This document shows, in pieces, positions 40,516 to 59,185 of a stretch of DNA of 64,000 nt. Both the position numbers and the translations under genes were made by a program. The notes under the pieces were generated by a model, which worked only from the letters and a program-made list of their open reading frames with translations, was not told where the DNA came from and ran no database searches. Each line of letters starts with the position of its first letter. The stretch's first letter is position 1. Origin of the DNA: Nitrospirota bacterium (GTDB lineage Bacteria > Nitrospirota > Nitrospiria > 2-01-FULL-66-17); assembly GCA_049325335.1 (NCBI GenBank), contig JBMOMC010000007.1, forward strand, positions 224,001 through 288,000, written 5' to 3'.

Positions 40516-40531
40516 AGCAATCTCAATGCCA
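40516..40531 (-). promoter_or_regulatory. Sigma54 promoter for narK and the kinase gene
   Basis: Minus strand TGGCAT-TGAGA-TTGCT. Confidence 0.8.
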
Positions 40532-43508: not shown

Positions 43509-44312
43509 CTAGACCACCCACAAGACCAGACACTTGGCGCTCCCCCCGGCCTTGTGAAACTCCGACAGATCCACGGGATGGGGCGTGAAGCCGTGCGCGC
43601 GCAGGGTTCGTTCCAACTCCTCGCAACCGGCCTGCAGGACCACGTCGCGCCCCGCCACTACCGCGTTGCACCCAAACCGCGCGGCGTCGGCCTCGCTCAC
43701 CGCGATCGGCTCGGGCACGAACTGCGCGATCACCTTGCGGCCGTACTCGTCGAACGCGGACGGATAATACAGCGCGCGCCGGGTATCGAGCGGGCAGAAA
43801 CACGTGTCCAAATGGTAAAAGCGCGGGTCCACCAGTTCGAGCGAGAGCACCTCGCGGCCCACCAGAGCGGCCACGGCCTGGTGCGAGCGGACGTCGGAAC
43901 GGATGCGGTACCCCGCGAACAGGGCCTCGCCCAACCACAACGCGTCGCCTTCGCCCTCGAAACACGTGTCCTCGGGCACGGCGTCGATCCGATACCCGCG
44001 CGCGCGAAACCACGCCTCGTAAATGGGTTGTTCCTGTTGGCGCTCCGGATGGAGGAACCGACTGGCCATGAAGCGGCCGGGTACGACCAGACCCGCGTTC
44101 GCAGTAAAGACCAAATCAGGCAGGCCCTTGACCGGGTCGAGCAGATCAACGCGAATGCCTAGGCCGTTGGTCAGCTCGTTGTACAACGCCCGCCACTGCG
44201 CCTGCGCGCGCGCCGCATCCGCAGGCCTGCGCACATCCATCCACGGGTTGATTTCGTATTCGATCCCGTAGAAGTCCGGCGGACACATCAACAGGGATCG
44301 ACCAGGCGTCAT
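43509..44312 (-). CDS. Amidinotransferase-superfamily enzyme (arginine dihydrolase-like)
   Basis: YEINPWM, LPDLVFTANAG, FEGEGD, FYHLDTCFCPL, KAGGSAKCL. Confidence 0.85.
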   Translation of the reverse strand: MTPGRSLLMCPPDFYGIEYEINPWMDVRRPADAARAQAQWRALYNELTNGLGIRVDLLDPVKGLPDLVFTANAGLVVPGRFMASRFLHPERQQEQPIYEAWFRARGYRIDAVPEDTCFEGEGDALWLGEALFAGYRIRSDVRSHQAVAALVGREVLSLELVDPRFYHLDTCFCPLDTRRALYYPSAFDEYGRKVIAQFVPEPIAVSEADAARFGCNAVVAGRDVVLQAGCEELERTLRAHGFTPHPVDLSEFHKAGGSAKCLVLWVV

Positions 44313-45547
44313 CCCTTCGACCGCGCACCCATCGGCGGATCCAACGCATCAACCAATGTCCGAAGAAACGGCTCCACGTCGGTGACCAGGCCCATGGCCT
44401 GAAAGCTCCCGCGATCCCCGAGTTTGGTCACCACCGCGGGGTTGATGTCCACGCAGATCAATTTCACCGAAGCGGGCAGAATGTTACCGGTGGCGATCGA
44501 GTGCAGCGTAGTGGCGATCAGGATCGCCACGGTCACGTCCTGGATGTTTTCGCGCATGGCGTCCTGGGCGCGGACCGCGTCGGTGATTACGTCCGGCAAC
44601 GGCCCGTCGTCGCGGATCGACCCGGCCAGCACCACGTCCACGCCGCACGTCACGCACGCGTGCATGATGCCGTTGGACAGTAGGCCACGCTCCACGGCCT
44701 GGCGAATGCCCCCGACCCGACGGATCGCGTTGATGGCACGCAGGTGGTGCTCGTGCCCCTCCTCGACCGGAATGCCCCGGTCGAGCGACATGCCCAGCGA
44801 CGTGCCGAACAACGCCTGCTCGATGTCGTGCGCCGCGAGCGCGTTGCCCGCGAACAAGACCTGCACGTACCCAGATCGAATCAACCGTTCCAGGTGCGGG
44901 CCCGACCCGGTGTGGATCACGGCCGGTCCCGCGACCACGAGAACCTTGTTCCCCGCAGCGCGCGCGGCCTTGATGTGCGCGGCCATTTCGCGGATCACCA
45001 CCGCCTTGGGTTTTTCGGAGGACACGCTGCTCGCCATAAACTCGAACACGTTGCGCTCCGGTGAACGGTCAATGGGCGAGACTTTGACTCCCGCGTGCCC
45101 AACCACGATCCGATCGCCGCGGCGCACCCGGTGCATGGGCACCGTACCCGCGCGGCCGGCGGCGGGGTCGAACGCGATGCCGCAATCCATTTCCGGACGT
45201 TCGACCGGGATCCACGCGCCGTTCACACGAATCCACGAGTCAAAATGCGACGTGCAGTAGAACCCTTCGGGGAACGCGCCGTCGCAGTCCGCCGCCACGA
45301 GCTTGACGTCTTCGCCCCGCACGGGCAATGCGCCATGCTGCCCGATGCGTCCGAGGATCACGTCGAGCTGCGCAGCATCGGACGCGGTCACGTTGATCGT
45401 GGCGCAACTCGCATCTTCCCGGCGGTGCCCCACGGTAAGATCCACGATCTCAAACCGCCCGCCCAGATTCATGATCTCGTCGAGTACCTTGGGCAGCAGC
45501 AGGGAATCAATGATGTGGCCGCGAAGTTCGACAGTTTCAGTGGGCAT
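44309..45547 (-). CDS. TIGR00300 / LOR-SDH-type ornithine cyclodeaminase-like protein
   Basis: LRGHIIDSL, FEFMASSVSSEKPK, GPAVIHTG, LAGSIRDDGPLPD, KLGDRGS. Confidence 0.85.
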   Translation of the reverse strand: MPTETVELRGHIIDSLLLPKVLDEIMNLGGRFEIVDLTVGHRREDASCATINVTASDAAQLDVILGRIGQHGALPVRGEDVKLVAADCDGAFPEGFYCTSHFDSWIRVNGAWIPVERPEMDCGIAFDPAAGRAGTVPMHRVRRGDRIVVGHAGVKVSPIDRSPERNVFEFMASSVSSEKPKAVVIREMAAHIKAARAAGNKVLVVAGPAVIHTGSGPHLERLIRSGYVQVLFAGNALAAHDIEQALFGTSLGMSLDRGIPVEEGHEHHLRAINAIRRVGGIRQAVERGLLSNGIMHACVTCGVDVVLAGSIRDDGPLPDVITDAVRAQDAMRENIQDVTVAILIATTLHSIATGNILPASVKLICVDINPAVVTKLGDRGSFQAMGLVTDVEPFLRTLVDALDPPMGARSKG

Positions 45548-46512: not shown

Positions 46513-46986
46513 TGCCGTCCCTCCTGTGTCTATGAGAAATCGCGCAACCGTGCGGAAGACCCCGCACCGCGCACCGGAAGAAAAGAGGCCACGTTCTATC
46601 ACGGGGATTTTGGGGTTGTCAAGCAACCGGTGCCGACGTGGGGATGATTCGGTAAGTCCGGCGGTCCGAATCAGGACGATGGCGATGTTCGCCTTCTGCG
46701 GTCTCGTCACCCCGCTCGGTCAAACGCAAGTCAAAAGCCACGCCTGTCCATTGGTATCTTGTTCGGTCAGAATCCTTATTCCTGTGGCCGACCCATGTTT
46801 CCGGTACTTTATCCTCCACAAGCGTTCCCGCCGTCATCGTCACTTACGAATCTGAAATCCGCATTACGGATCACGTGGGTAGAAACTCGGCATTCATGTA
46901 CGGATTTCCGTCAATCGGGCTGTCATCGACCATAAGAAATGTCGACCTTTCAATGAGTTACTCTTGCTTAATCATCAATTGACCAG

Positions 46987-47002
46987 TGGCACCTAAGTTG
47001 CT
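46987..47002 (+). promoter_or_regulatory. Sigma54 promoter for the FN3/secreted-protein operon
   Basis: TGGCAC-CTAAG-TTGCT, a full consensus match; upstream ACGGA-TT-TCCGT inverted repeat. Confidence 0.8.
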
Positions 47003-47097: not shown

Positions 47098-47577
47098 ATG
47101 ACAAGCGGACGTTTACCGCGACTCTTGATACCCACGGTATCGGCGATGGGGGAGGAACTCACCGCTCGCAAACGCCACGCCCGTCTCTTCGCCGGCTCGT
47201 TGCGCCAACTGTCCGGTCTCGCCCTTGGCGTCGGCCTCTTGGTGTTGGCGGGGTGCGGTAACGGAGCAGGATCAACCGACGCCCAGAGCCCGTCGGACCC
47301 CGTCAACCTCAGTACCGCGGTCTTAAATTGGGATGCGCCTTCCACCAGCGAGGACGGGACGCCGATCGCGGATCTGGCCGGATACAGAGTTTACTACGGC
47401 ACCACCGAACCGGTGACCAAATCGAACAGTGACAGCGTTGATGTCGGCGACACCTTGGGCCACACCTTCGACAGCCTCCCCGCCGGCACGTACTACTTCG
47501 CGGTCGCCGCGTATGATCTGTACAACAACGAGAGCGAGTTATCGGGGTCCGTGACCAAGGTCATCTCGGAAGGTTAG
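47098..47577 (+). CDS. Fibronectin type III lipoprotein
   Basis: GGAGGAGG RBS, lipobox VLAGC, LNWDAP..LAGYRVYYG..GTYYFAVAAYD..NES. Confidence 0.8.
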   Translation: MTSGRLPRLLIPTVSAMGEELTARKRHARLFAGSLRQLSGLALGVGLLVLAGCGNGAGSTDAQSPSDPVNLSTAVLNWDAPSTSEDGTPIADLAGYRVYYGTTEPVTKSNSDSVDVGDTLGHTFDSLPAGTYYFAVAAYDLYNNESELSGSVTKVISEG

Positions 47578-47616
47578 GCCATCACCATCACACGGGATAT
47601 ATTCGGGGTATCGGCT

Positions 47617-49026
47617 ATGCGGTTATCGCAATGGGGCGTGGGAATCGCGGGAGGAGTGCTCGCCGGTGTTCTGGGAGGCTGGGGGCTATCGTCCGACGCG
47701 TGGGGCGCGACGTACTACGTGGATCAGGCGCACCCCAGCGCCAACGACAGCGGTCCCGGCACGAGTGAAACCGCACCCTGGTTGACGCTCCAGCGCGCGA
47801 TGCAATCCGACATCGTGGCGGGAGACACGGTCTACGTGAAGAATGGCACATATGACGCGGGAGCGGGTGAATTTAATCCGGCAAATTCCGGAACCCCAAG
47901 CGCGCCGATCGCCTTTCGCGCGTTCTCGGGACACCGTCCCGTGGTCACGAAGCCCGGCGGAGATCCGGCAGGCGGAAACCGTATGGTGATCGGCGCGGAC
48001 GGCCGAGGGAGTTATGTGATTTGGGATGGATTCACCCTTGGTCCGTGGACCAACGTCTTGGTGATGAACGCCGATGGCGTCGTGTTGGAAAATTTGATCA
48101 TCGACAAAGGCGCATCGGTACCGGCGAGCTGCGGACAAGGCAACTACAACGGCATTTTCGTCGAACTCGCTAACAACACCGTAATTCGCAACAACATCAT
48201 TCGCAACATCAACTATACCGGCTGCAACTTGTGGAACGCGGGTGGGATCGTGTTGTACGAAGCGCACAACACGCGTATTTATAATAACGAAATCTATAAC
48301 ACCAACACGGGCATCAACGATAAAGAAAATGGCGTCTCCAACATCCACGAGTTCAACTACTTTCATGACATCGCCGGCCCCGGGGTGATGTTTCAGGGCT
48401 ACGCCACGAGCCGGTGCGGGGCCTGCCCGGTTGAGAACATTGCGGTCCGCAACAATATCTTCGTCAACACCGATGTTGGAGTGTATCTGAATCTTTCGGA
48501 CCCCTCGCGCGAGCGAAATATCGATGTCTACAACAATGTCCTGTATAACGTCCGCAAGGGGTTCGGCATGATCACCGCCATTCCGGACATCGACGTTTAC
48601 AACAACATTCTGATCACGCGAGCCGTTTCCGACTCTGCTGAAATCGACCTCGATGCGATTCCCGCTGATTGGATGTCCAACTACAACAATTTCGAAGCGG
48701 CGTCAGGCGGAACGATCACCTTTAACACCCCGTCCGGCGCCGTCACGCTCACCCAGTGGCGGACCTCGCTGGGCGCTGACTTGAACTCAACCACGCTCGG
48801 TTCTCTATTTATCGGACCACTCACAGGGTCGATCCGTCCCGAGGCGTTCCGGCTGAGCGGGATATCACCACTGATCAACCAGGGTCGCACCGGGGGAGTC
48901 TTGACCGGTACGCCGGTCAATATGGGAGCATTTCTCAGCAGCAATGATGTGGTCGGCTTGCGATCGGACTTGGGTCCGGTGGATTTCACTCCGCCTGCGC
49001 GGCCGACCGGCCTGAACGTTCGATAG
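47617..49026 (+). CDS. Secreted right-handed beta-helix (pectin lyase-like) protein
   Basis: Signal peptide, ATYYVD..ANDSGPGT..PWLTL, AGDTVYVKNGTY, NN-rich coils; tail DFTPPARPTGLNVR. Confidence 0.8.
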   Translation: MRLSQWGVGIAGGVLAGVLGGWGLSSDAWGATYYVDQAHPSANDSGPGTSETAPWLTLQRAMQSDIVAGDTVYVKNGTYDAGAGEFNPANSGTPSAPIAFRAFSGHRPVVTKPGGDPAGGNRMVIGADGRGSYVIWDGFTLGPWTNVLVMNADGVVLENLIIDKGASVPASCGQGNYNGIFVELANNTVIRNNIIRNINYTGCNLWNAGGIVLYEAHNTRIYNNEIYNTNTGINDKENGVSNIHEFNYFHDIAGPGVMFQGYATSRCGACPVENIAVRNNIFVNTDVGVYLNLSDPSRERNIDVYNNVLYNVRKGFGMITAIPDIDVYNNILITRAVSDSAEIDLDAIPADWMSNYNNFEAASGGTITFNTPSGAVTLTQWRTSLGADLNSTTLGSLFIGPLTGSIRPEAFRLSGISPLINQGRTGGVLTGTPVNMGAFLSSNDVVGLRSDLGPVDFTPPARPTGLNVR

Positions 49027-49087
49027 GTCTGTCCGGCGCCTCCGCGCGCCGGACGAGCATTGGCATTCCGCGGATACTGGAGCCACC

Positions 49088-49927
49088 ATGAAGCCATTGC
49101 GCCCTGTAATCGTCGCGATCGTTCTCGGACTGGCGCTGTCCGGACTAAGCCGGACCGCTTCGGCCCAGATTCTGCTCCAAGAAGATTTTGAGGACAGTAA
49201 TCTCTCCAGCCGCGGCTGGTACGACATGGCGCGATGGGGCACGGAACAATTCATCTCGACTACCCAAGCCCGAAGCGGGAGTGCGTCCCTGGAAGTCCGC
49301 TACCAGAGCGGATCAACCGGCCCCTATATGCGTCATCAGTTTTCAGGTCAAAACCGCGTGTACACCCGGTACTACCGCAAGTGGGCGTCCAACTGGCGGT
49401 GGTCAACGGTGCCGGGACCGCACGATACATACCTGTTCGCCATGTACGGCCAACAATACTTCGCTCCGACCGAGACGTATCTGACCGTTTATACCGACGC
49501 CGTGTATCAGGGATTACCAAGTTGGCAACCGGGAACCATCGGGCTCCAAACAAAACGCTCGCTACAAGGCGAGTCGTATCGGACGTTGACGAGCTTGAGT
49601 CAGCCGCCCGCGCGATTCGTCCTTGATCAATGGTATTGCGTGGAGGTGATGGCCACCATGAACACCCCTGGAAGCAGCGACGGACGGCTTCAGTTATGGC
49701 TCGATGGGACACCGATCTTCGACGTGAGCGGCCGGCTACTTCGGGATGCCAACAATGCGGGGCTTCAGTTCGACCAGTTTATGTTCGGCCCGTACTTTCA
49801 CGGTGGAACGTCGCAAGTCCAGTCAACCTGGATTGATGCGCTGGTGATCGCTACCGAACGAGTGGGGTGTCTCGATGCCTCCGACACCACGCCTCCAAGT
49901 GCGCCGACCGGCCTCGTGGTTGAATAG
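49088..49927 (+). CDS. Secreted polysaccharide lyase/ConA-like jelly-roll protein
   Basis: Signal peptide, EDFE, QWYCVE..NTPG..DG..LWLDG, WIDALVIATERVGC; tail DTTPPSAPTGLVVE. Confidence 0.7.
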   Translation: MKPLRPVIVAIVLGLALSGLSRTASAQILLQEDFEDSNLSSRGWYDMARWGTEQFISTTQARSGSASLEVRYQSGSTGPYMRHQFSGQNRVYTRYYRKWASNWRWSTVPGPHDTYLFAMYGQQYFAPTETYLTVYTDAVYQGLPSWQPGTIGLQTKRSLQGESYRTLTSLSQPPARFVLDQWYCVEVMATMNTPGSSDGRLQLWLDGTPIFDVSGRLLRDANNAGLQFDQFMFGPYFHGGTSQVQSTWIDALVIATERVGCLDASDTTPPSAPTGLVVE

Positions 49928-49959
49928 CGATGTATACCAGGCGTCGCGGGAGGAATCGA

Positions 49960-51006
49960 ATGCCCACGCGACTCGTTGTTTTCGTGGTAACCGTCGTCAT
50001 GTTCAACGGTCAGTTCGCCTTCGCAGCGCACGACTCAATCGCCCCATCAGCGCCACGGGGCGTCACGGGCCACGGTGTGAGCGCCACGTCGATAGAACTG
50101 ACGTGGTGGCCTTCCCAGGACAATGCCGGCATCGACCACTACAACATCTATCGGTGCCAGGGATCGTCCTGCACCGGGACGCTCGTCGGCACCGCCGACA
50201 CCAATTATTTTCTCGATACGGGTTTATCCGCCCAAACCCCGTACTCCTACACCGTCACGGCGGTTGATCCCGAAGGACGGGAGTCGGCTCGTTCACTCAC
50301 GCTGGACGGCTACAGCCGGAGCATTCTGACACACCCAACGGGCGGAACCGAAACGATCGAGATCACCAGCTCGCCGACTCAGGTAGCGCCTGGAGCGACG
50401 TTCAGCGTGAGCTGGCGACCGACGCTCAACTATCAGCCGGGCTCATTCGGTCATCATGACGCCCATTTTAACGATTCGTTGGACACATGGGGGTGTAATC
50501 CGCCCAACTGCTGGTACGAGGTGGATATCACCAGTAATGGCGGAGTGTATTCCGTCACGTCCACCGCGCCAGCCGCCACCAAAGACATCTATTGGATCCC
50601 GGACCCGCACGCGGCCGGAGCCACATACAATATCAACACCCACCAGCACTATCCGCTTGCGCGGATCGTCGTGACCAACGGCAACCCGCTAGCCATCACG
50701 ACCACCACCTTGCCGAACGCCACGCTGAACACGCCCTATTCCCGAACCATCGTCCACAACGCCAGCAACGAGGCGGTCGGACCGTTCGCGTGCGGGGTCT
50801 CCGAGGGCAGACTGCCGAATAATGTGCTGCTCAACAGCGCGACCTGCGTCCTATCGGGAACCCCCACCGAGTCCGGGAGCTTCATCTTCACCGCTCGCGT
50901 CAAAGCGACCAGTGAAAATTACGCCATGCGCCGGCTCGCGTTGACGGTCGGCACCTCATCCGACACGATCCCGCCCAGCCCCCCCACCGGCCTCACCGTC
51001 CGATAG
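49960..51006 (+). CDS. Secreted FN3 plus putative Ig-domain protein
   Basis: Complete N-terminal FN3 (APSAPRGV..LTW..YSYTVTAVD), Ig-like LAITTTTLP..LSGTPT; tail DTIPPSPPTGLTVR. Confidence 0.75.
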   Translation: MPTRLVVFVVTVVMFNGQFAFAAHDSIAPSAPRGVTGHGVSATSIELTWWPSQDNAGIDHYNIYRCQGSSCTGTLVGTADTNYFLDTGLSAQTPYSYTVTAVDPEGRESARSLTLDGYSRSILTHPTGGTETIEITSSPTQVAPGATFSVSWRPTLNYQPGSFGHHDAHFNDSLDTWGCNPPNCWYEVDITSNGGVYSVTSTAPAATKDIYWIPDPHAAGATYNINTHQHYPLARIVVTNGNPLAITTTTLPNATLNTPYSRTIVHNASNEAVGPFACGVSEGRLPNNVLLNSATCVLSGTPTESGSFIFTARVKATSENYAMRRLALTVGTSSDTIPPSPPTGLTVR

Positions 51007-51082: not shown

Positions 51083-51910
51083 TCATAGATGCAATGCTCG
51101 ATTAACCCTCCCTTTAAGCTTATTAACAACGCCTTTAATTTTATAATTGATAACACGATCTCTTTTTTTTAGAAGTTCGTCGGCCCCGTTGAACTCAGAG
51201 AGAAACTTGTTCGCCCATTTCGCATTGATGTCGTTACTCTGCCTTTTTGTGACTTGCTCATTCGGTATTTTTTCTGGATCAATCTCCGCACCAACAAATT
51301 CTGCGATCCGTTTTATTGATTGCGTAAGACTGTCACGAACATCTCTAAAGTCCATGTCAATTCGTTTACATCCGCAGGCGGCCAGACTATACCGCCAAGA
51401 AGAATTTTCGAGAATGGTTTGACGGAGATATGCGTTAATCTGATTGAAATTATATTTCGGATTATCATGCACAGGTTTTTGACCAGATATCCATACACCC
51501 GTTTGACTCGCGATTGCCAATGACACAGCTTGTCCTATCAGGTCTTCCCGAGAGAGAAGGATGTAGTACGCGTTTGGGAAATATTCCATTAACCGATGGA
51601 ATCCACCAAACTGATTTATATGGGAGTAATGGATCTTTATTCCAAATACTCCGTTAGGCGATGTCCTTCGCCGCTGTATTTCCGTCAAAACATCAAAAAA
51701 AAGTTTTTTACCAAAGCGCCTCTTCCATTCGGCGATATTCGCGGAATTTGCATACTCAAGTGGAAACCCAAAACAGCTGGTCTTATGCAGCGCATGCCCC
51801 AACATATGGCCGCCCGATCTGGCGGTCGAAGCGATGATCAGGATCTTCGAGGGCTTTTCTACTCGAGGGAAATCATGGTGCTCTGAGAATTGGTCGTCAT
51901 ATAAGTGCAT
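51083..51910 (-). CDS. Stf0-family sulfotransferase
   Basis: ASTARSGG PAPS-binding loop, PLEY, NGVFGIK, LSREDLIGQAVS; AT-rich. Confidence 0.8.
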   Translation of the reverse strand: MHLYDDQFSEHHDFPRVEKPSKILIIASTARSGGHMLGHALHKTSCFGFPLEYANSANIAEWKRRFGKKLFFDVLTEIQRRRTSPNGVFGIKIHYSHINQFGGFHRLMEYFPNAYYILLSREDLIGQAVSLAIASQTGVWISGQKPVHDNPKYNFNQINAYLRQTILENSSWRYSLAACGCKRIDMDFRDVRDSLTQSIKRIAEFVGAEIDPEKIPNEQVTKRQSNDINAKWANKFLSEFNGADELLKKRDRVINYKIKGVVNKLKGRVNRALHL

Positions 51911-52192
51911 CGTGCTCCCCGTTGCGTTGCCAAACGAGTCCGGAGAATTCCTCCATCCGTTCCCGGTATCGTTTTCCCTTTCGAACGACAACGCCATGAA
52001 TACTACATTCTTCCGGCACGCCTGCTTCGGATACCACCGGCGACATGGGCGAGTACCCGAACCACCTCATCGACCACGTGGCGGTCGCCGCGCAGATGTC
52101 CTCGGCGGATAACCCCTGCGTCGAGGCTGCGATTATAATTCTTTTCGGAATTTTTCTACAACGCAACGACTTTCTGAGCGAGGACCTGTTGT

Positions 52193-52969
52193 CTAGCGAC
52201 GATGGCAACGGTTGCATGACGTCAGCGGGAACGCAACCTTCCCGTGGCAGGTTCCGCAGAAACGTCCGGCGTTCAAATCCGACATGGACATGACATTCGC
52301 TCCCTTCTTCTGCGTGAACACACCAGGATGGCAATTGCGACATTCAAGCCAGAGCGCGTGGGAGGCATGCGGGAAAACTACCGGCGGCATGCCGTCGGTT
52401 TCCGTAAACACGATATCCGCCGGCCCGGGTTCGGGAGAACCCGATGACGGGTTCGGTTTGTAGGATGGGCGCGGTGTAATCACGCCCTCTTTCACCGCGG
52501 CAATCCAGTCGATGCCACCGTCCTCGTCCCGTGGAAACGGCTGCAACAAGACCTCTGGATCCCGATTGTCCTCCGCATATGGCGGTCCCGGTTCCGGCAG
52601 TGTGGTTGCGCTTGGATCAGACCGGGCAATGAGGCGATCGTCAACCCGGTGACACCGCGTACAAGTGATGGGCCGCCACGCAACCGTGCCGTTGTGACAG
52701 GTTGAGCAAAAGTTTTGCTTCGCCGCCATCCGTTCCATCATGATGTTCAGCGTGTTGGCCGCCATGGGGAACACATCGGGATGACAGGCCGAACACATAA
52801 ATTCGGTTCGGTGAATCCAGTGCGGAAACACCACGGCGGGAGCGCCGAATTCCTTGGCAGTGGTGTTCATCTGAACGTCGCCATAGAAGCCGAACGCAGG
52901 ACCTCCGTCGCCAATGACCGACCACAGCAACACGAGGGAGGGAAGAACCGCGTGGGCGATGATTCTCAC
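52193..52969 (-). CDS. Hexaheme cytochrome c (two c7-type triheme domains)
   Basis: Six CxxCH motifs (CSACH, CSTCH, CTRCH, CRNCH, CGTCH, CNRCH), two VVFPH motifs, signal peptide. Confidence 0.9.
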   Translation of the reverse strand: MRIIAHAVLPSLVLLWSVIGDGGPAFGFYGDVQMNTTAKEFGAPAVVFPHWIHRTEFMCSACHPDVFPMAANTLNIMMERMAAKQNFCSTCHNGTVAWRPITCTRCHRVDDRLIARSDPSATTLPEPGPPYAEDNRDPEVLLQPFPRDEDGGIDWIAAVKEGVITPRPSYKPNPSSGSPEPGPADIVFTETDGMPPVVFPHASHALWLECRNCHPGVFTQKKGANVMSMSDLNAGRFCGTCHGKVAFPLTSCNRCHRR

Positions 52970-53061: not shown

Positions 53062-54015
53062 TCAAGGAGACTGATTGATTGGGATACAGCCGCTGCGCGC
53101 GGTGGAGAACACCACCCCGTCAAAGTGGATCGCCGGCGTAGTGTTGGTGGCTGCTGCGCCGCCTTCGGCTCCCACGAAGTTGTCCGAGATGTTGACCATG
53201 GTCCACGCAAAGGTCCCCGGCCCGCTGGCGCCCCGCGTGTCGGCTGATGGATTTGAGGCAACAAGTTTTCCGTCAACGTAGATCTCCATCAATCCATTGG
53301 CGGGATTGACTCGGGTATTCTGCCGGACGTGGAGTTCAAGACAATACCACCGGTCGACCGCAAACTCACCGGGCAAACTGCCCACGAGCAGATTGTTCTG
53401 ACAGCACCACGTTGTGCCGTCCGCGGTGTACGCGTAGGTCCACCGAATTCGCGTCGGGTCTCCATGAAAGGGGCCCCAGTAGCTCTCGATGCACGGACGT
53501 CCGGACTGACAGGAGTCGACGGTCCTTAACCGACCGAATTTAATCCCGCCGTACAACGCCGGCCACTCCCACCCTTTGGGTAGCCGAACATAGTGTCGGA
53601 CCCACAACTCCTCGCTTGGAGATGTCCACGTGGTTGGTTCCTGATTCGCATGGTCACGTAGTTCTGACGCGCCCTGCCGACCTGGAAGAAAATGTTCCGC
53701 GAAGAAGCAGTTCCCAGTGGCCGCAGTGCCGTCACAGATGATCTGAATTGCGTCCGAGGAATGCCAATACACGACGTTATCCCAGACATGGTCGAGGGGT
53801 TTCCCGGTTCCGACCGGCGGACTCAGCACGTGGACGCCGGAATTGGTTGGGAAATACTCGAAGTCATCCGCAATCAATGTTTCGGCCCAAACCGGAGCGG
53901 ACACCAACCATCCGGCGGTCACCCAGGCGCCCAGGAACGCGTTCCATCGTGCGCGGCGATCGAACACGCTGATCTTAGCGATGAGAGGGACCAGATCGTT
54001 GCCGACCCTGAACAC
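53062..54015 (-). CDS. Secreted polysaccharide lyase/ConA-like protein
   Basis: Same pattern as 49088-49927 (DDFE, RWYCLE..NT..NG..YVDG, FDGVVFSTARSGC) but without the tail. Confidence 0.65.
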   Translation of the reverse strand: MFRVGNDLVPLIAKISVFDRRARWNAFLGAWVTAGWLVSAPVWAETLIADDFEYFPTNSGVHVLSPPVGTGKPLDHVWDNVVYWHSSDAIQIICDGTAATGNCFFAEHFLPGRQGASELRDHANQEPTTWTSPSEELWVRHYVRLPKGWEWPALYGGIKFGRLRTVDSCQSGRPCIESYWGPFHGDPTRIRWTYAYTADGTTWCCQNNLLVGSLPGEFAVDRWYCLELHVRQNTRVNPANGLMEIYVDGKLVASNPSADTRGASGPGTFAWTMVNISDNFVGAEGGAAATNTTPAIHFDGVVFSTARSGCIPINQSP

Positions 54016-54016
54016 G

Positions 54017-57000
54017 CTACGGATTCACCGTGACAACCTGCGTGGCGTCCGTGGCCGAGATGAATCCTGAGGCGCTCACGGACACGGTAGTTGTTCCAGC
54101 CCCCACTGGGTCAAACGCCACACCCAATTCCGCGCCATCCAAAAACGCCGGCGGCGTCGAATAGTGGCCCGGTGTTAGGACCAGGGGGACCGAAGGAGCC
54201 CGATTGTCCCGGGTAGCCAATTGTCCAACCGCCCCGTTACTACTGGTAATGTTCAGCGTCACCCCTGGGAGACCACTTCCCACCCGGACCAGTTGGGCCG
54301 CAATGAGCGGACCGCCGCCTTCAGCCGTCACGCCTGACAACACACGGAAGAAACTGTCAGCGCCACTCGCGACGTGGGTCGGCGTGAGGTCCCTTATTGC
54401 AACGGCCGGTTGCACAATGTGTATGGGACCACTTGTGGCCGGTATGTAGCCGGGGGCAGAAATCGTGAGCTGTCCCGTACCGCGCGCCTCTTCCACGCCC
54501 TGGATTGTAAATGTGGAGATCGAGGACGTACCGCCTGGTATGACCAGCGTAATCGATGAGCTCCCAGTTCGAGGCCATGCCTCTGGTGCAACCAATAGCG
54601 TGGGGAGATTACTGGTTACCGTCACCGGCAGCCCGCCGGTCGGCGCAGTAGCCCCGTTGAGCAGACGAATCAGGAAGCAGCCGGCGCATTCCAGGCCTGC
54701 ACCCAAACGGAAGTCGCCCCCCCCGAACCCGAAATGGACTATCTCCATGGCGAGGGCGGTGCCGACGGTGACGAACTGACTGGCGCCGGTGGTGGAGCCC
54801 ACGCCGACCGCGCTCGCGGTCACGGTCGTGGTCTGCCCCGTGGCAGTATTGTCCGGATCAAACGCGATCCCGCCCGTGGCCACGCTCGCCGCCGACTCGC
54901 TCTGCCCCGGCGCAATACTCACCTCCTTGGACAGCCCACTCCCGGTGGTGGTCACCAGCGTCCCGGCTGCGGGCTCGCTGCTCATGACGGTCACGGTCAG
55001 TGTGCCCGGCCCGCCCTGCCGTAGGGCTTGCGCGGTCCCGAACGTGGTCCCGCCCGCACTACTCGGCAATCCCACGCGCACGCCAAACTCATCATTCGCC
55101 GCGCCTGGGCTCAGCGTGCTCGCCAAGTTGATCAGCGTCAGCACCGGCGGCTCGATGGAGACGGCCGGACTCGTGCCGTCGAGGTACCCGGCCGCACTCG
55201 CCACCACCTGCACGGGTCCGCTCGCGCCTTCCACCCCCTGCAGGCTAAATGCCGTGCTGGTGCTGCCGGCCTGGATGACCACCATGAGGGTTCCACTGCC
55301 GCCCCCCGCCGGGATCACCGCTTCGGCCACGCGCAGGCGCGTAACGTCCGTGCTGGTCAGGGTAACTACGAGCCCGCCCGCGGGCGCGGGTTGGTTACTC
55401 GTCACGGTGCAGCACGCGCTCACTTCCAAGCCTGCCCCCAAGCGGGTCAGGGTTCCGAGATTCACACTCAACGTCGGGCTGGTTACGCTCACCAGTTGGC
55501 TCGCCCCCGTGGTGCTGCCGACCCCCGGCGCGCTCGCCGTGATGGTTGTGATCTCGTTCGCCACCCCATCAGCGGGATTAAACGCCACGCCGCCCGTCGC
55601 CACCGTCGCCGAGGAATCGCTCTGGCCCGGCTGGATCTGGACGAGTTGGCTCGCGCCGCTGCCGCCACTGGTCACCAGGGTCCCCGCCGCCGGGGTACTG
55701 GTCGTGACCGTGGCGGTCAGCCCGCCCGGCCCCCCTTGCCGCAGAGCCTGCGCGGTTCCGAATGTCGTTCCGCCACTGCTCGTCGTGATACCCAGTCGCA
55801 CACGAAATTCATCATCCGGCGCGGCCGCCGCCAGGTTTGCGCTCAAATCCACCAGGGTCAGCACGGGCGCTTCCACGCTCACCGCCGGGCTCGTTCCCGC
55901 GGTGTGGCCCGTCGCGGTCGCCGTCACGCTCGCACTGCCCACCGCGCTCTCCACGCCTTGCAGGCTGAACGCCGCGCTGGTCCCGCCTTCCGGAATCGTC
56001 ACCACCACGCTGCTCCCACCGCCGCTCCCCGGGATTGTGCCCGGGGCCACCAACAGCCGCGTGGCATCGCTGCTCGTGAGGGTCACCGCCACGCCCCCGG
56101 CCGGCGCCGGTTGATTGGCGATCACGCTACAGCAGGCCGCCACTTCTAAGCCCGCACCGATGCGGGTCACGGTCCCCAAATTCACGCTCAGTCGCGGCGG
56201 CGCCGGCGTCACGCTCACCACTTGGCTCGCCCCCGTGGCCGCCGTGAATCCGGCAATCAGCGCGGTCACCGTCGTGCTGCCGCCAGTCTCCATCGGCCGA
56301 AACGCCATGCCCCCCGCCGCCACGGTGGTCCGCGTCTCGTAATAGGTCGTCGTGATCGACGCCGCCGCGCTCGCCCCCGCCCCCGCGTTCGTCACCACTT
56401 GCCCCGCGCTCGGGTCACTGCTCGTCACGGTCACGCTGATCGCGCCCGGCGCGCCCCGCCGCACGGGTTGCGGGCTCACAATCCCATCCGGACGAATCGG
56501 CCCGATACGGACCCGAAACACATTGTCCGCCCCGCCGCCCGCTTGCGGACTGGTCAACGCAACGATCGTGTACCCCGGCGTCACCACGCTGATCGGCCGG
56601 CTCGTCGCCGGGGTAAACCCCGTGGCCGTGGCCGTCACCGTCGTCAGCCCGGTCACGCCTTCCAGCCCCTGCAGGCTAAACGTGGTCGTACTGGCTCCCG
56701 CCGCAATCGTCACCACGGTCGACGCCGTGCCCCCTGTGCTCGGCACGGTCGCGCCCGCCACCAACAACCGCGTCGGATCGTTGCTCGTGAGCGTGACTCC
56801 CAACCCGCCAGCCGGCGCGACCGCCCCATTCAATAACCGCACCTGTAAACAACTCCCGCACTCCAAACCGGATCCGACGAGAAATGGCTCCGTCGTAAAA
56901 TACCGAATCTCCATGGCGAGGGCGGTGCCGACGGTGACGAACTGACTGGCGCCGGTGGTGGAGCCCACGCCGACCGCGCTCGCGGTCACGGTCGTGGTCT

Positions 57001-59185
57001 GCCCCGTGGCAGTATTGTCCGGATCAAACGCGATCCCGCCCGTGGCCACGCTCGCCGCCGACTCGCTCTGCCCCGGCGCAATACTCACCTCCTTGGACAG
57101 CCCACTCCCGGTGGTGGTCACCAGCGTCCCGGCTGCGGGCTCGCTGCTCATGACGGTCACGGTCAGTGTGCCCGGCCCGCCCTGCCGTAGGGCTTGCGCG
57201 GTCCCGAACGTGGTCCCGCCCGCACTACTCGGCAATCCCACGCGCACGCCAAACTCATCATTCGCCGCGCCTGGGCTCAGCGTGCTCGCCAAGTTGATCA
57301 GCGTCAGCACCGGCGGCTCGATGGAGACGGCCGGACTCGTGCCGTCGAGGTACCCGGCCGCACTCGCCACCACCTGCACGGGTCCGCTCGCGCCTTCCAC
57401 CCCCTGCAGGCTAAATGCCGTGCTGGTGCTGCCGGCCTGGATGACCACCATGAGGGTTCCACTGCCGCCCCCCGCCGGGATCACCGCTTCGGCCACGCGC
57501 AGGCGCGTAACGTCCGTGCTGGTCAGGGTAACTACGAGCCCGCCCGCGGGCGCGGGTTGGTTACTCGTCACGGTGCAGCACGCGCTCACTTCCAAGCCTG
57601 CCCCCAAGCGGGTCAGGGTTCCGAGATTCACACTCAACGTCGGGCTGGTTACGCTCACCAGTTGGCTCGCCCCCGTGGTGCTGCCGACCCCCGGCGCGCT
57701 CGCCGTGATGGTTGTGATCTCGTTCGCCACCCCATCAGCGGGATTAAACGCCACGCCGCCCGTCGCCACCGTCGCCGAGGAATCGCTCTGGCCCGGCTGG
57801 ATCTGGACGAGTTGGCTCGCGCCGCTGCCGCCACTGGTCACCAGGGTCCCCGCCGCCGGGGTACTGGTCGTGACCGTGGCGGTCAGCCCGCCCGGCCCCC
57901 CTTGCCGCAGAGCCTGCGCGGTTCCGAATGTCGTTCCGCCACTGCTCGTCGTGATACCCAGTCGCACACGAAATTCATCATCCGGCGCGGCCGCCGCCAG
58001 GTTTGCGCTCAAATCCACCAGGGTCAGCACGGGCGCTTCCACGCTCACCGCCGGGCTCGTTCCCGCGGTGTGGCCCGTCGCGGTCGCCGTCACGCTCGCA
58101 CTGCCCACCGCGCTCTCCACGCCTTGCAGGCTGAACGCCGCGCTGGTCCCGCCTTCCGGAATCGTCACCACCACGCTGCTCCCACCGCCGCTCCCCGGGA
58201 TTGTGCCCGGGGCCACCAACAGCCGCGTGGCATCGCTGCTCGTGAGGGTCACCGCCACGCCCCCGGCCGGCGCCGGTTGATTGGCGATCACGCTACAGCA
58301 GGCCGCCACTTCTAAGCCCGCACCGATGCGGGTCACGGTCCCCAAATTCACGCTCAGTCGCGGCGGCGCCGGCGTCACGCTCACCACTTGGCTCGCCCCC
58401 GTGGCCGCCGTGAATCCGGCAATCAGCGCGGTCACCGTCGTGCTGCCGCCAGTCTCCATCGGCCGAAACGCCATGCCCCCCGCCGCCACGGTGGTCCGCG
58501 TCTCGTAATAGGTCGTCGTGATCGACGCCGCCGCGCTCGCCCCCGCCCCCGCGTTCGTCACCACTTGCCCCGCGCTCGGGTCACTGCTCGTCACGGTCAC
58601 GCTGATCGCGCCCGGCGCGCCCCGCCGCACGGGTTGCGGGCTCACAATCCCATCCGGACGAATCGGCCCGATACGGACCCGAAACACATTGTCCGCCCCG
58701 CCGCCCGCTTGCGGACTGGTCAACGCAACGATCGTGTACCCCGGCGTCACCACGCTGATCGGCCGGCTCGTCGCCGGGGTAAACCCCGTGGCCGTGGCCG
58801 TCACCGTCGTCAGCCCGGTCACGCCTTCCAGCCCCTGCAGGCTAAACGTGGTCGTACTGGCTCCCGCCGCAATCGTCACCACGGTCGACGCCGTGCCCCC
58901 TGTGCTCGGCACGGTCGCGCCCGCCACCAACAACCGCGTCGGATCGTTGCTCGTGAGCGTGACTCCCAACCCGCCAGCCGGCGCGACCGCCCCATTCAAT
59001 AACCGCACCTGTAAACACGTCACGCACTCCAGCCCCGCCCCGACGAGAAATGGCTCCGTCGTAAAATACCGAATCTCCATGGTGGATTGGGCAAAAGCGG
59101 ACCCGCTCAACGGCGGGAACGCGGTGGTCAGACCTGCCATCGTCAACATACCCAACATCCATCCGGTCAGCCGCGTCAGTCGCAT
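54017..59185 (-). CDS. Large secreted Ig-like repeat protein (adhesin/S-layer-like)
   Basis: Signal peptide; seven units of about 240 aa, each starting G(A/S)GLE followed by a Cys pair; rich in T, G, A, V. Confidence 0.8.
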   Translation of the reverse strand: MRLTRLTGWMLGMLTMAGLTTAFPPLSGSAFAQSTMEIRYFTTEPFLVGAGLECVTCLQVRLLNGAVAPAGGLGVTLTSNDPTRLLVAGATVPSTGGTASTVVTIAAGASTTTFSLQGLEGVTGLTTVTATATGFTPATSRPISVVTPGYTIVALTSPQAGGGADNVFRVRIGPIRPDGIVSPQPVRRGAPGAISVTVTSSDPSAGQVVTNAGAGASAAASITTTYYETRTTVAAGGMAFRPMETGGSTTVTALIAGFTAATGASQVVSVTPAPPRLSVNLGTVTRIGAGLEVAACCSVIANQPAPAGGVAVTLTSSDATRLLVAPGTIPGSGGGSSVVVTIPEGGTSAAFSLQGVESAVGSASVTATATGHTAGTSPAVSVEAPVLTLVDLSANLAAAAPDDEFRVRLGITTSSGGTTFGTAQALRQGGPGGLTATVTTSTPAAGTLVTSGGSGASQLVQIQPGQSDSSATVATGGVAFNPADGVANEITTITASAPGVGSTTGASQLVSVTSPTLSVNLGTLTRLGAGLEVSACCTVTSNQPAPAGGLVVTLTSTDVTRLRVAEAVIPAGGGSGTLMVVIQAGSTSTAFSLQGVEGASGPVQVVASAAGYLDGTSPAVSIEPPVLTLINLASTLSPGAANDEFGVRVGLPSSAGGTTFGTAQALRQGGPGTLTVTVMSSEPAAGTLVTTTGSGLSKEVSIAPGQSESAASVATGGIAFDPDNTATGQTTTVTASAVGVGSTTGASQFVTVGTALAMEIRYFTTEPFLVGSGLECGSCLQVRLLNGAVAPAGGLGVTLTSNDPTRLLVAGATVPSTGGTASTVVTIAAGASTTTFSLQGLEGVTGLTTVTATATGFTPATSRPISVVTPGYTIVALTSPQAGGGADNVFRVRIGPIRPDGIVSPQPVRRGAPGAISVTVTSSDPSAGQVVTNAGAGASAAASITTTYYETRTTVAAGGMAFRPMETGGSTTVTALIAGFTAATGASQVVSVTPAPPRLSVNLGTVTRIGAGLEVAACCSVIANQPAPAGGVAVTLTSSDATRLLVAPGTIPGSGGGSSVVVTIPEGGTSAAFSLQGVESAVGSASVTATATGHTAGTSPAVSVEAPVLTLVDLSANLAAAAPDDEFRVRLGITTSSGGTTFGTAQALRQGGPGGLTATVTTSTPAAGTLVTSGGSGASQLVQIQPGQSDSSATVATGGVAFNPADGVANEITTITASAPGVGSTTGASQLVSVTSPTLSVNLGTLTRLGAGLEVSACCTVTSNQPAPAGGLVVTLTSTDVTRLRVAEAVIPAGGGSGTLMVVIQAGSTSTAFSLQGVEGASGPVQVVASAAGYLDGTSPAVSIEPPVLTLINLASTLSPGAANDEFGVRVGLPSSAGGTTFGTAQALRQGGPGTLTVTVMSSEPAAGTLVTTTGSGLSKEVSIAPGQSESAASVATGGIAFDPDNTATGQTTTVTASAVGVGSTTGASQFVTVGTALAMEIVHFGFGGGDFRLGAGLECAGCFLIRLLNGATAPTGGLPVTVTSNLPTLLVAPEAWPRTGSSSITLVIPGGTSSISTFTIQGVEEARGTGQLTISAPGYIPATSGPIHIVQPAVAIRDLTPTHVASGADSFFRVLSGVTAEGGGPLIAAQLVRVGSGLPGVTLNITSSNGAVGQLATRDNRAPSVPLVLTPGHYSTPPAFLDGAELGVAFDPVGAGTTTVSVSASGFISATDATQVVTVNP
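54741..59082. repeat. Near-identical 2166-bp tandem duplication
   Basis: 54741-56916 matches 56907-59082; identical shadow ORFs are offset by exactly 2166; a short variable patch lies at about 56852-56874 versus 59018-59040. Confidence 0.92.

Follow-up and report, generated by a model that had tools for sequence, protein, structure and literature searches.

We analysed a 64,000-nucleotide stretch of DNA from a Nitrospirota bacterium (GCA_049325335.1, contig JBMOMC010000007.1, positions 224,001 to 288,000; henceforth the window), in which four consecutive genes at 47098 to 51006 encode a lipoprotein and three secreted proteins that end in the same short motif. An earlier note, made from the sequence alone, had proposed that these C-terminal tails resemble the first strand (strand A) of an FN3 (fibronectin type III) domain and may complete, in trans, the FN3 domain of the lipoprotein, which appeared to lack that strand. 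The locus comprises the following features:

46857 to 46871, no strand: palindrome ATCCG-N5-CGGAT, a candidate activator site by its position
46987 to 47002, + strand: sigma54 -24/-12 consensus site, exact match
47098 to 47577, + strand: gene 1, lipoprotein and proposed socket, with a lipobox cysteine at 47254, a linker and an FN3 domain without strand A
47617 to 49026, + strand: gene 2, secreted right-handed beta-helix protein of 469 residues (Pfam Beta_helix, expect value (E) 6e-8)
48982 to 49026, + strand: strand-A tail of gene 2 including the stop, by the C-terminal tail matrix
49088 to 49927, + strand: gene 3, secreted polysaccharide-lyase-like protein of 279 residues (Pfam PF21294 and PF14099, both above cut-off)
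49883 to 49927, + strand: strand-A tail of gene 3 including the stop, by the tail matrix; the partner in the complex prediction
49960 to 51006, + strand: gene 4, secreted FN3/Ig protein (Pfam fn3 and He_PIG)
50962 to 51006, + strand: strand-A tail of gene 4 including the stop, by the tail matrix and by alignment to the FN3-repeat profile

Gene 1 has two possible start codons, 47098 or 47146, and strands B to G of its FN3 domain lie at about 47311 to 47565. The most likely start of gene 4 is the ATG at 49960, judging from a Shine-Dalgarno-like GGGAGGA upstream. The complete FN3 domain of gene 4 begins at about 50032 and covers positions 1 to 76 of the 84 in the Pfam fn3 profile, its He_PIG Ig domain spans about 50692 to 50949 (Pfam), and the roughly 125 residues between them, rich in histidine and containing two cysteines, have no match above 0.81 in the atlas and form a possible metal-binding Ig-like domain (gene 4 was queried against Pfam, NCBIfam and the atlas without its first three residues). 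Signal peptides in genes 2 to 4 and the lipobox in gene 1 were read from the sequence, and all four products appear to be exported. The description of the tailed proteins as glycan-active finds a basis in the Pfam folds of genes 2 and 3; in gene 4, neither Pfam nor the atlas recognised a catalytic domain. A weak NCBIfam invert_tail match was discarded, as it spans the signal peptide region only.

The FN3 domain of the lipoprotein has six of the seven strands expected in one chain. Its AlphaFold2 model, built with 83 sequences, contains six strands across mature residues 20-104, with a predicted local distance difference test score (pLDDT) of about 50 for residues 1-20. Foldseek matches the model to FN3 domains with a probability of 1.0 and a TM-score of about 0.6, so that the beta-sandwich is recognisably that of FN3; the Pfam fn3 match is below cut-off (E 0.013). 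The model bears out the absence of a full strand A, but the PSDPVNL segment ahead of strand B, in which no room for that strand had been seen, itself resembles part of strand A and draws profile alignments both from Pfam and from the FN3-repeat profile. We rejected PSDPVNL as the domain's own strand A: its first proline lies 13 residues from the strand-B tryptophan versus 19-20 in complete domains, the segment is missing in the five closest homologs (P0002-P0006), and the AlphaFold2 model does not place it. By eye, the domain also starts at strand B in the 120 homologs listed of 169, where what precedes it is a signal peptide, a linker of low complexity or a He_PIG domain. The best named relatives are Nitrospirota. 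In the atlas the lipoprotein falls in generic fn3 clusters only, a plasmid tblastn search with the domain gave no matches, and no solved structure of the family was present among the best 60 of 68 and the best 60 of 73 matches. The glycine at position +2 would presumably favour the outer membrane by the Escherichia coli rule, which comes from another phylum.

FN3 domains lacking strand A (henceforth strand-less) form a family whose members sit at chain ends. At 78 genome loci, the strand-A motif is absent from 101 of 106 domain profile matches, and 97 of these 101 are terminal, with 69 at the C-terminus, 28 directly after a hydrophobic leader and four elsewhere. For 12 of 13 strand-less domains the Pfam fn3 alignment begins at profile position 13-16, versus 1-4 for complete ones. 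Attached to strand-less domains are an upstream lipobox-like motif (35, by a loose pattern), a C-terminal membrane helix (three), SLH (L058) or a dockerin (L132 and L268). The two top matches of a profile search through 1.84 billion representatives, P0174 and P0175, are FN3 arrays in which strand A is present in 15/15 detected internal copies and missing only from the first domain, directly after the signal peptide. These two proteins have 2600-2700 residues and 19-20 FN3 domains, and by eye the end of P0174 resembles a FlgD-Ig or type IX-style sorting domain. Among the 150 proteins listed, the motif occurs in 889/1130 internal domains and is absent from 7/14 N-terminal ones. This genome encodes a second strand-less FN3 (C43:83157-85493, - strand), placed at the tip of an FN3-repeat stalk whose C-terminal end reads GGC, membrane helix, RRR; its gene has its own sigma54 site and no tailed gene beside it. 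In the Protein Data Bank, the match of the profile to chain Sa of 9d93, gp30 of a phage tail-wing base, sets in with strand C at residue 4, and by this alignment the chain may be a solved natural split FN3.

We confirmed that three secreted proteins carry 14-residue tails of the same motif, each followed by TAG. Only 28-30 of 45 bases are common to the DNA of the three tails, which are therefore not a recent DNA repeat. A C-terminus-anchored tail matrix, trained on 31 tails from database homologs that include two of the window's three, gave these three scores of 31.8-38.3 and the runner-up among the genome's 8495 open reading frames (ORFs) a score of 9.8; the strand-A tail thus ends 3/8495 ORFs and no others genome-wide. 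The tails match FN3 strand A in sequence and spacing, and that of gene 4 aligns to positions 1-13 of the profile of the genome's own complete FN3 repeats, at an E of only 0.09. The same peptide also occurs as an ordinary internal strand within FN3 arrays. Complete FN3 repeats with a tail-like strand A are found in two giant reading frames, C7:191516-218560 (- strand, 9014 residues, dozens of repeats, just outside the window) and C38:42237-60608 (+ strand, 6123 residues, few repeats). As had been noted, the lyase-like gene at 53062-54015 (- strand) has no tail; it is a paralog only distantly related to gene 3 (19.6% identity, E 6e-8), and the genes on either side of it encode a large repeat protein and a multiheme cytochrome c (52193-52969).

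The tail is portable across folds. Among homologs retrieved at 0.55-1.75 times the query length only, it ends 19 of 32 lyase-like proteins (with a degenerate end in two, none in 11 and a complete FN3 in none) and 14 of 21 beta-helix proteins, one of these degenerate; in P0160 a complete FN3 precedes the tail. Tails also terminate GH5, heparinase II, GHL15 and DUF5060 proteins (Pfam). Could they be neutral stubs of truncated FN3 domains? The tail is absent or eroded in 13/32 lyase-like and 7/21 beta-helix homologs, and three distant lyase-like proteins of a Pseudomonadales sample, in genomes without a strand-less match, terminate in an apparently complete FN3 and offer a possible origin. A profile search found no FN3 downstream of the three stops, however, its sole match being gene 4's own domain; this and the absence of any complete FN3 in the place of the tail among the 32 lyase-like homologs speak against the truncation that the earlier note had named as grounds for giving up its proposal. 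Moreover, unrelated families share the point of the break, the chain stopping a single residue beyond the last conserved position in 40 of the 61 C-termini listed (about seven entries of this list being false matches), and the peptide is conserved though the DNA has diverged. We give the stub explanation very little credence.

Another reading that we weighed is that a machine unrelated to FN3, such as a type II secretion system, a protease or a transpeptidase, takes the C-terminal tail as a signal for sorting or secretion. Its strictly terminal position and its portability would suit a signal, the genome has secretins and the adjacent gene cluster an exosortase, and the homolog P0166 ends, by eye, in a dockerin-like repeat in the tail's place (without a Pfam match). 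On the other hand, the tail matches FN3 strand A in sequence and spacing and recurs inside arrays, it has neither the PEP motif nor the membrane helix and basic cluster of PEP-CTERM signals (PMC1569441), and no NCBIfam model, sorting models included, describes it. The sorting alternative, which the earlier note had left standing, is not supported by these results and is in our judgement very unlikely.

A strand-less domain and a tail can occur in one small protein. At 79 viral loci, many small secreted proteins consist of strands B-G followed by the tail; examples of such single-unit proteins include L245, L281, L293, L296, L298, L303, L308, L313, P0014, P0025 and P0082, many of them in viral contigs. 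In 31 single-unit proteins picked by hand, the spacing from strand G to strand A was measurable in 19 and amounted to 14-18 residues in 13 of these; it is 18 residues in 30/31 junctions of the giant FN3 array of this genome. The AlphaFold2 model of one such protein (pLDDT 94) has six strands and an unpaired tail, and in solved tandems its profile and model align to strands B-G of a first domain plus strand A of the domain that follows. Circular permutation in cis was ruled out by the tandem-array spacing, by the free tail in the model and by the distance between FN3 termini, about 36 Å, which in engineered permutants was bridged by an 18-residue linker (10.1101/2022.08.26.505460). The tails of single units most likely pair in trans, and chains would therefore form; we regard these proteins as candidate chain-forming subunits.

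Does a tail predict a strand-less domain nearby? We compared 151 genomes of the phylum and 301 genomes of a Pseudomonadales sample, related genomes in either sample not being independent. In the phylum, 16 genomes have the lyase family and 74 match the strand-less profile; the domain is present in 16/16 lyase-family genomes versus 58/135 others, and in 13 of the 15 other lyase-family genomes it lies within 13 kb of the lyase gene. Across 16 fetched 20-kb stretches, it accompanies 11 of 12 tailed lyase loci (two of these tails accepted by eye) versus 0/4 untailed or degenerate ones. Differing cargo stands beside a strand-less FN3 in relatives of the same genus (G001, G002 and G003), family (G005) and class (G009 and G016). 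The Pseudomonadales sample has the domain in 80/301 genomes and a lyase-like match in 22, of which three have a clear tail (domain in 3/3), one an ambiguous tail (domain not found) and 18 no tail or a cut-off end (domain in five). At 80 metagenome lyase loci, the domain was found at 3/19 tailed versus 0/61 untailed loci. In the reverse direction, from strand-less domains to tails, the link is loose (see below).

We next consider the interaction itself. AlphaFold2 gave a six-stranded lipoprotein on its own. For the complex, lipoprotein residues 10-107 were combined with the C-terminal 30 residues of gene 3. The pair scored 0.60 in three runs against 0.14 for the best control, the contacts agreed by at least 96% and the pLDDT of the partner was 60-62; the output includes no interface. 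The pass mark was reached by 116/157 solved complexes and 2/215 mismatches, and likeness to solved FN3 domains can itself produce a pass; at 0.60 or under, only 18 solved complexes passed, together with both passing mismatches, and the tool grades the result weak. The locus has an acceptor short of one strand and other chains that carry it, and the prediction weakly favours their pairing.

Several observations weigh against this pairing. Strands B-G of the lipoprotein are modelled with a pLDDT of about 90, and because the model is confident by itself, the domain may be stable alone. P0209 has five internal family repeats without the strand-A motif. The co-occurrence counts are all inflated by kinship, and two loci are present in both sets; three of the four untailed or degenerate Nitrospirota loci belong to one genus, and at two of the four the domain falls slightly beyond the ends of the fetched stretch, 11 and 12.6 kb away. 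Of the 16 tailed metagenome loci without the domain, nine have 9-21 kb of context. A tail was found within 10 kb at only 11/78 strand-less loci, leaving 67/78 without, and within 1.5 kb at 0/30 strand-less loci of the Pseudomonadales sample. A DNA pattern search, which 50 of the 78 strand-less loci entered (four matches having no locus), found real tails in at least 8/50 domain-bearing genomes, with raw counts of 34 versus 36 in the control, and in 0/5 domain-rich genomes. The counts of such searches were no higher than in controls; these patterns detect roughly one known tail in four, matching only 10-11 of the 52 listed C-termini that had been identified by other means, and since they match so few, we did not count absence by DNA pattern as shown. 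Finally, the two partners could have come to lie at exopolysaccharide clusters independently of each other.

In a rival reading the six-stranded domain would be autonomous, a binding or spacer module, with the tails acting elsewhere, for instance by strand exchange with the FN3 arrays of the 9014- and 6123-residue proteins, and the genes would be neighbours because they have sigma54 regulation and the exopolysaccharide locus in common. In its favour, visible tails are far fewer than strand-less domains, the monomer model is confident and giant FN3-repeat proteins exist in this genome; beta-strand exchange between FN3 repeats is known for anastellin (PMC13233970). An autonomous domain would, however, leave unexplained the terminal position of the family and the loss of the strand from the first domain only in arrays, the single-unit proteins with both ends, and the difference between tailed and untailed metagenome loci. 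We consider it unlikely. By contrast, donor-strand complementation accounts at once for the strand that is missing, the strand that is orphaned, the terminal location of both and the single-unit proteins, and we hold it probable that such complementation tethers the enzymes to the envelope as a natural split-FN3 tether. Of the docking originally suggested, strand complementation has gained comparative evidence and a weak complex prediction, but the surface location has not, as the periplasm fits equally well.

Under donor-strand complementation, the four genes would probably be co-transcribed from the sigma54 promoter, to judge from its site. The lipid would hold the lipoprotein in the membrane, where its FN3 domain, as the six-strand model suggests, would present an empty strand-A groove. 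The last 14 residues of each cargo protein would insert as strand A, giving a seven-stranded fold in trans in the manner weakly predicted for gene 3. Because in FN3 topology strand A starts at the pole opposite the start of strand B and the end of strand G, the cargo would face outward from its anchor; the same polarity would explain both the stop of tails one or two residues beyond the strand and the location of sockets at the ends of chains. A second socket, on the C43 stalk, could carry this cargo at a greater distance. The tether would probably serve to keep polysaccharide-processing or polysaccharide-binding proteins near the exopolysaccharide of the adjacent cluster, whether periplasmic or on the surface.

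More tentatively, the system may be a general plug-and-socket assembly in which FN3 is split at the A-B loop across Nitrospirota, Proteobacteria, other phyla and phages. Sockets would be anchored or stalked (lipoprotein, membrane helix, SLH or dockerin), enzymes tagged with 14 residues would be exchangeable, and single units would chain head to tail into non-covalent FN3 filaments; together they would display exopolysaccharide-processing enzymes much as a cellulosome does and amount to a natural peptide tag/catcher pair. We see this wider scheme as possible, with the case for it falling a little short of even.

The exact sigma54 consensus upstream of the four genes, as had been reported, is one of four in the genome, two of which precede its two strand-less FN3 genes, and no sigma70 promoter-like site was found. 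A sigma54 site lies on the sense strand ahead of 22/153 strand-less ORFs versus two on the antisense strand (a few loci being duplicated). PEP-CTERM genes of Proteobacteria are likewise preceded by sigma54 sites (PMC1569441). The palindrome ATCCG-N5-CGGAT lies 105-130 bp upstream of the sigma54 sites of both strand-less genes, at about 105 bp in the case of C43:85630. It has 11 copies in the genome versus 10.9 expected, so only its position is notable. Compared by eye with the PrsR regulon, where there is also a sigma54 site, the upstream palindrome differs from the motif ending in TTTACA. In the relative G001, the surroundings include a PrsT-family gene and a sigma54 two-component pair, and by eye the neighbours of the 78 strand-less loci include sigma54 two-component and polysaccharide genes; clustering these neighbours by eye yielded no dedicated chaperone or transporter family. 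The operon itself stands at the end of a polysaccharide cluster of approximately 40 kb, as its ORF sequences indicate, which contains the exosortase, and the genome encodes four PEP-CTERM-like proteins.

Other features flank the operon. Converging on it is a Stf0-family sulfotransferase gene (51083-51997, - strand; 44% G+C versus 58-64% around it), which was probably acquired and whose product may sulfate the polysaccharide. Further along, 54017-59185 (- strand) encodes a secreted Thr/Ala/Gly-rich protein of 1722 residues without a Pfam or NCBIfam match, in which a 722-residue block is duplicated (718/722 residues and 2157/2166 bases identical), either a recent duplication or an assembly artefact. 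On the other side, at 43509-45547 (- strand), what we take to be an amidinotransferase-like gene adjoins a TIGR00300-family ornithine cyclodeaminase-like gene, downstream of a peroxiredoxin. A one-mismatch sigma54-like site (40516-40531, + strand match) lies between a nitrate/nitrite transporter gene and a PII-ammonium transporter pair, both on the - strand.

We found no description of such a system in the full-text literature, a body that excludes most subscription papers and supplements; as far as these searches show, the mechanism is of a known kind and its FN3 version, docking enzymes, is undescribed. If the binding is true, a way of organising secreted enzymes at the Gram-negative envelope has been overlooked by annotation, because the socket passes for a plain FN3 domain and so short a tag escapes matching. 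It would also give a role to a large hypothetical FN3 family, the one present in 74/151 phylum and 80/301 Pseudomonadales genomes, link that family to exopolysaccharide remodelling in biofilm-forming environmental bacteria, and supply protein engineering with a natural 14-residue tag and 9-kDa catcher.

How does this arrangement compare with known systems? In the type V pili of Bacteroidia, Mfa1 is paired with a lipoprotein anchor, Mfa2, that accepts a C-terminal donor strand; type V pilins have two transthyretin-like domains and are matured by a protease from lipoprotein precursors. A lipoprotein anchor taking a C-terminal donor strand is what we propose here as well, but the lipoprotein of this operon is an FN3 protein, no Mfa/FimA family matched in Pfam or NCBIfam, and type V pilins build fibres whereas enzymes would be held here. 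In the cellulosome, C-terminal dockerins on varied glycan enzymes bind the cohesins of anchored or stalked receptors, which brings together two folded domains that have calcium-binding loops. The portable C-terminal module on varied glycan enzymes is alike, and some strand-less FN3 domains are fused to a dockerin; unlike in the cellulosome, a 14-residue peptide would complete a single domain, and Pfam matched neither dockerin nor cohesin in the four proteins.

Chaperone-usher pili and archaeal cannulae rely on chains with an incomplete beta-sandwich, whose groove takes up a beta-strand from another chain without a covalent bond (PMC12518558), and a strand of one chain is likewise proposed here to complete the sandwich of another. 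The operon differs from both in its FN3 fold, in a C-terminal donor carried by enzymes, in a membrane-anchored acceptor and in having no two-ended subunit. Pilins of the chaperone-usher type have an Ig fold without strand G rather than FN3 without strand A, and no chaperone or usher family was matched by Pfam or NCBIfam among the operon and flanking proteins scanned. PilC/PilY1 also uses a short conserved C-terminal strand, which docks a large secreted protein as an adapter (PMC13711793; PMC12918778, PMC13533445); there, the acceptor is a pilin complex instead of a strand-less FN3, and the tail belongs to one protein family only. The PEP-CTERM/exosortase system, present in this genome, resembles ours in that secreted-protein genes linked to exopolysaccharide are preceded by sigma54 sites and bear a short C-terminal tag (PMC1569441). 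The strand-A tail lacks every hallmark of that tag named above, and its proposed docking does not imply cleavage. Lastly, FN3 has been rebuilt from separate fragments by engineered fragment exchange and circular permutation (10.1101/2022.08.26.505460), and anastellin, a fragment from the vertebrate matrix (PMC13233970), exchanges strands between repeats; in both cases, the domain is split at other loops than the one at which it would be divided here.

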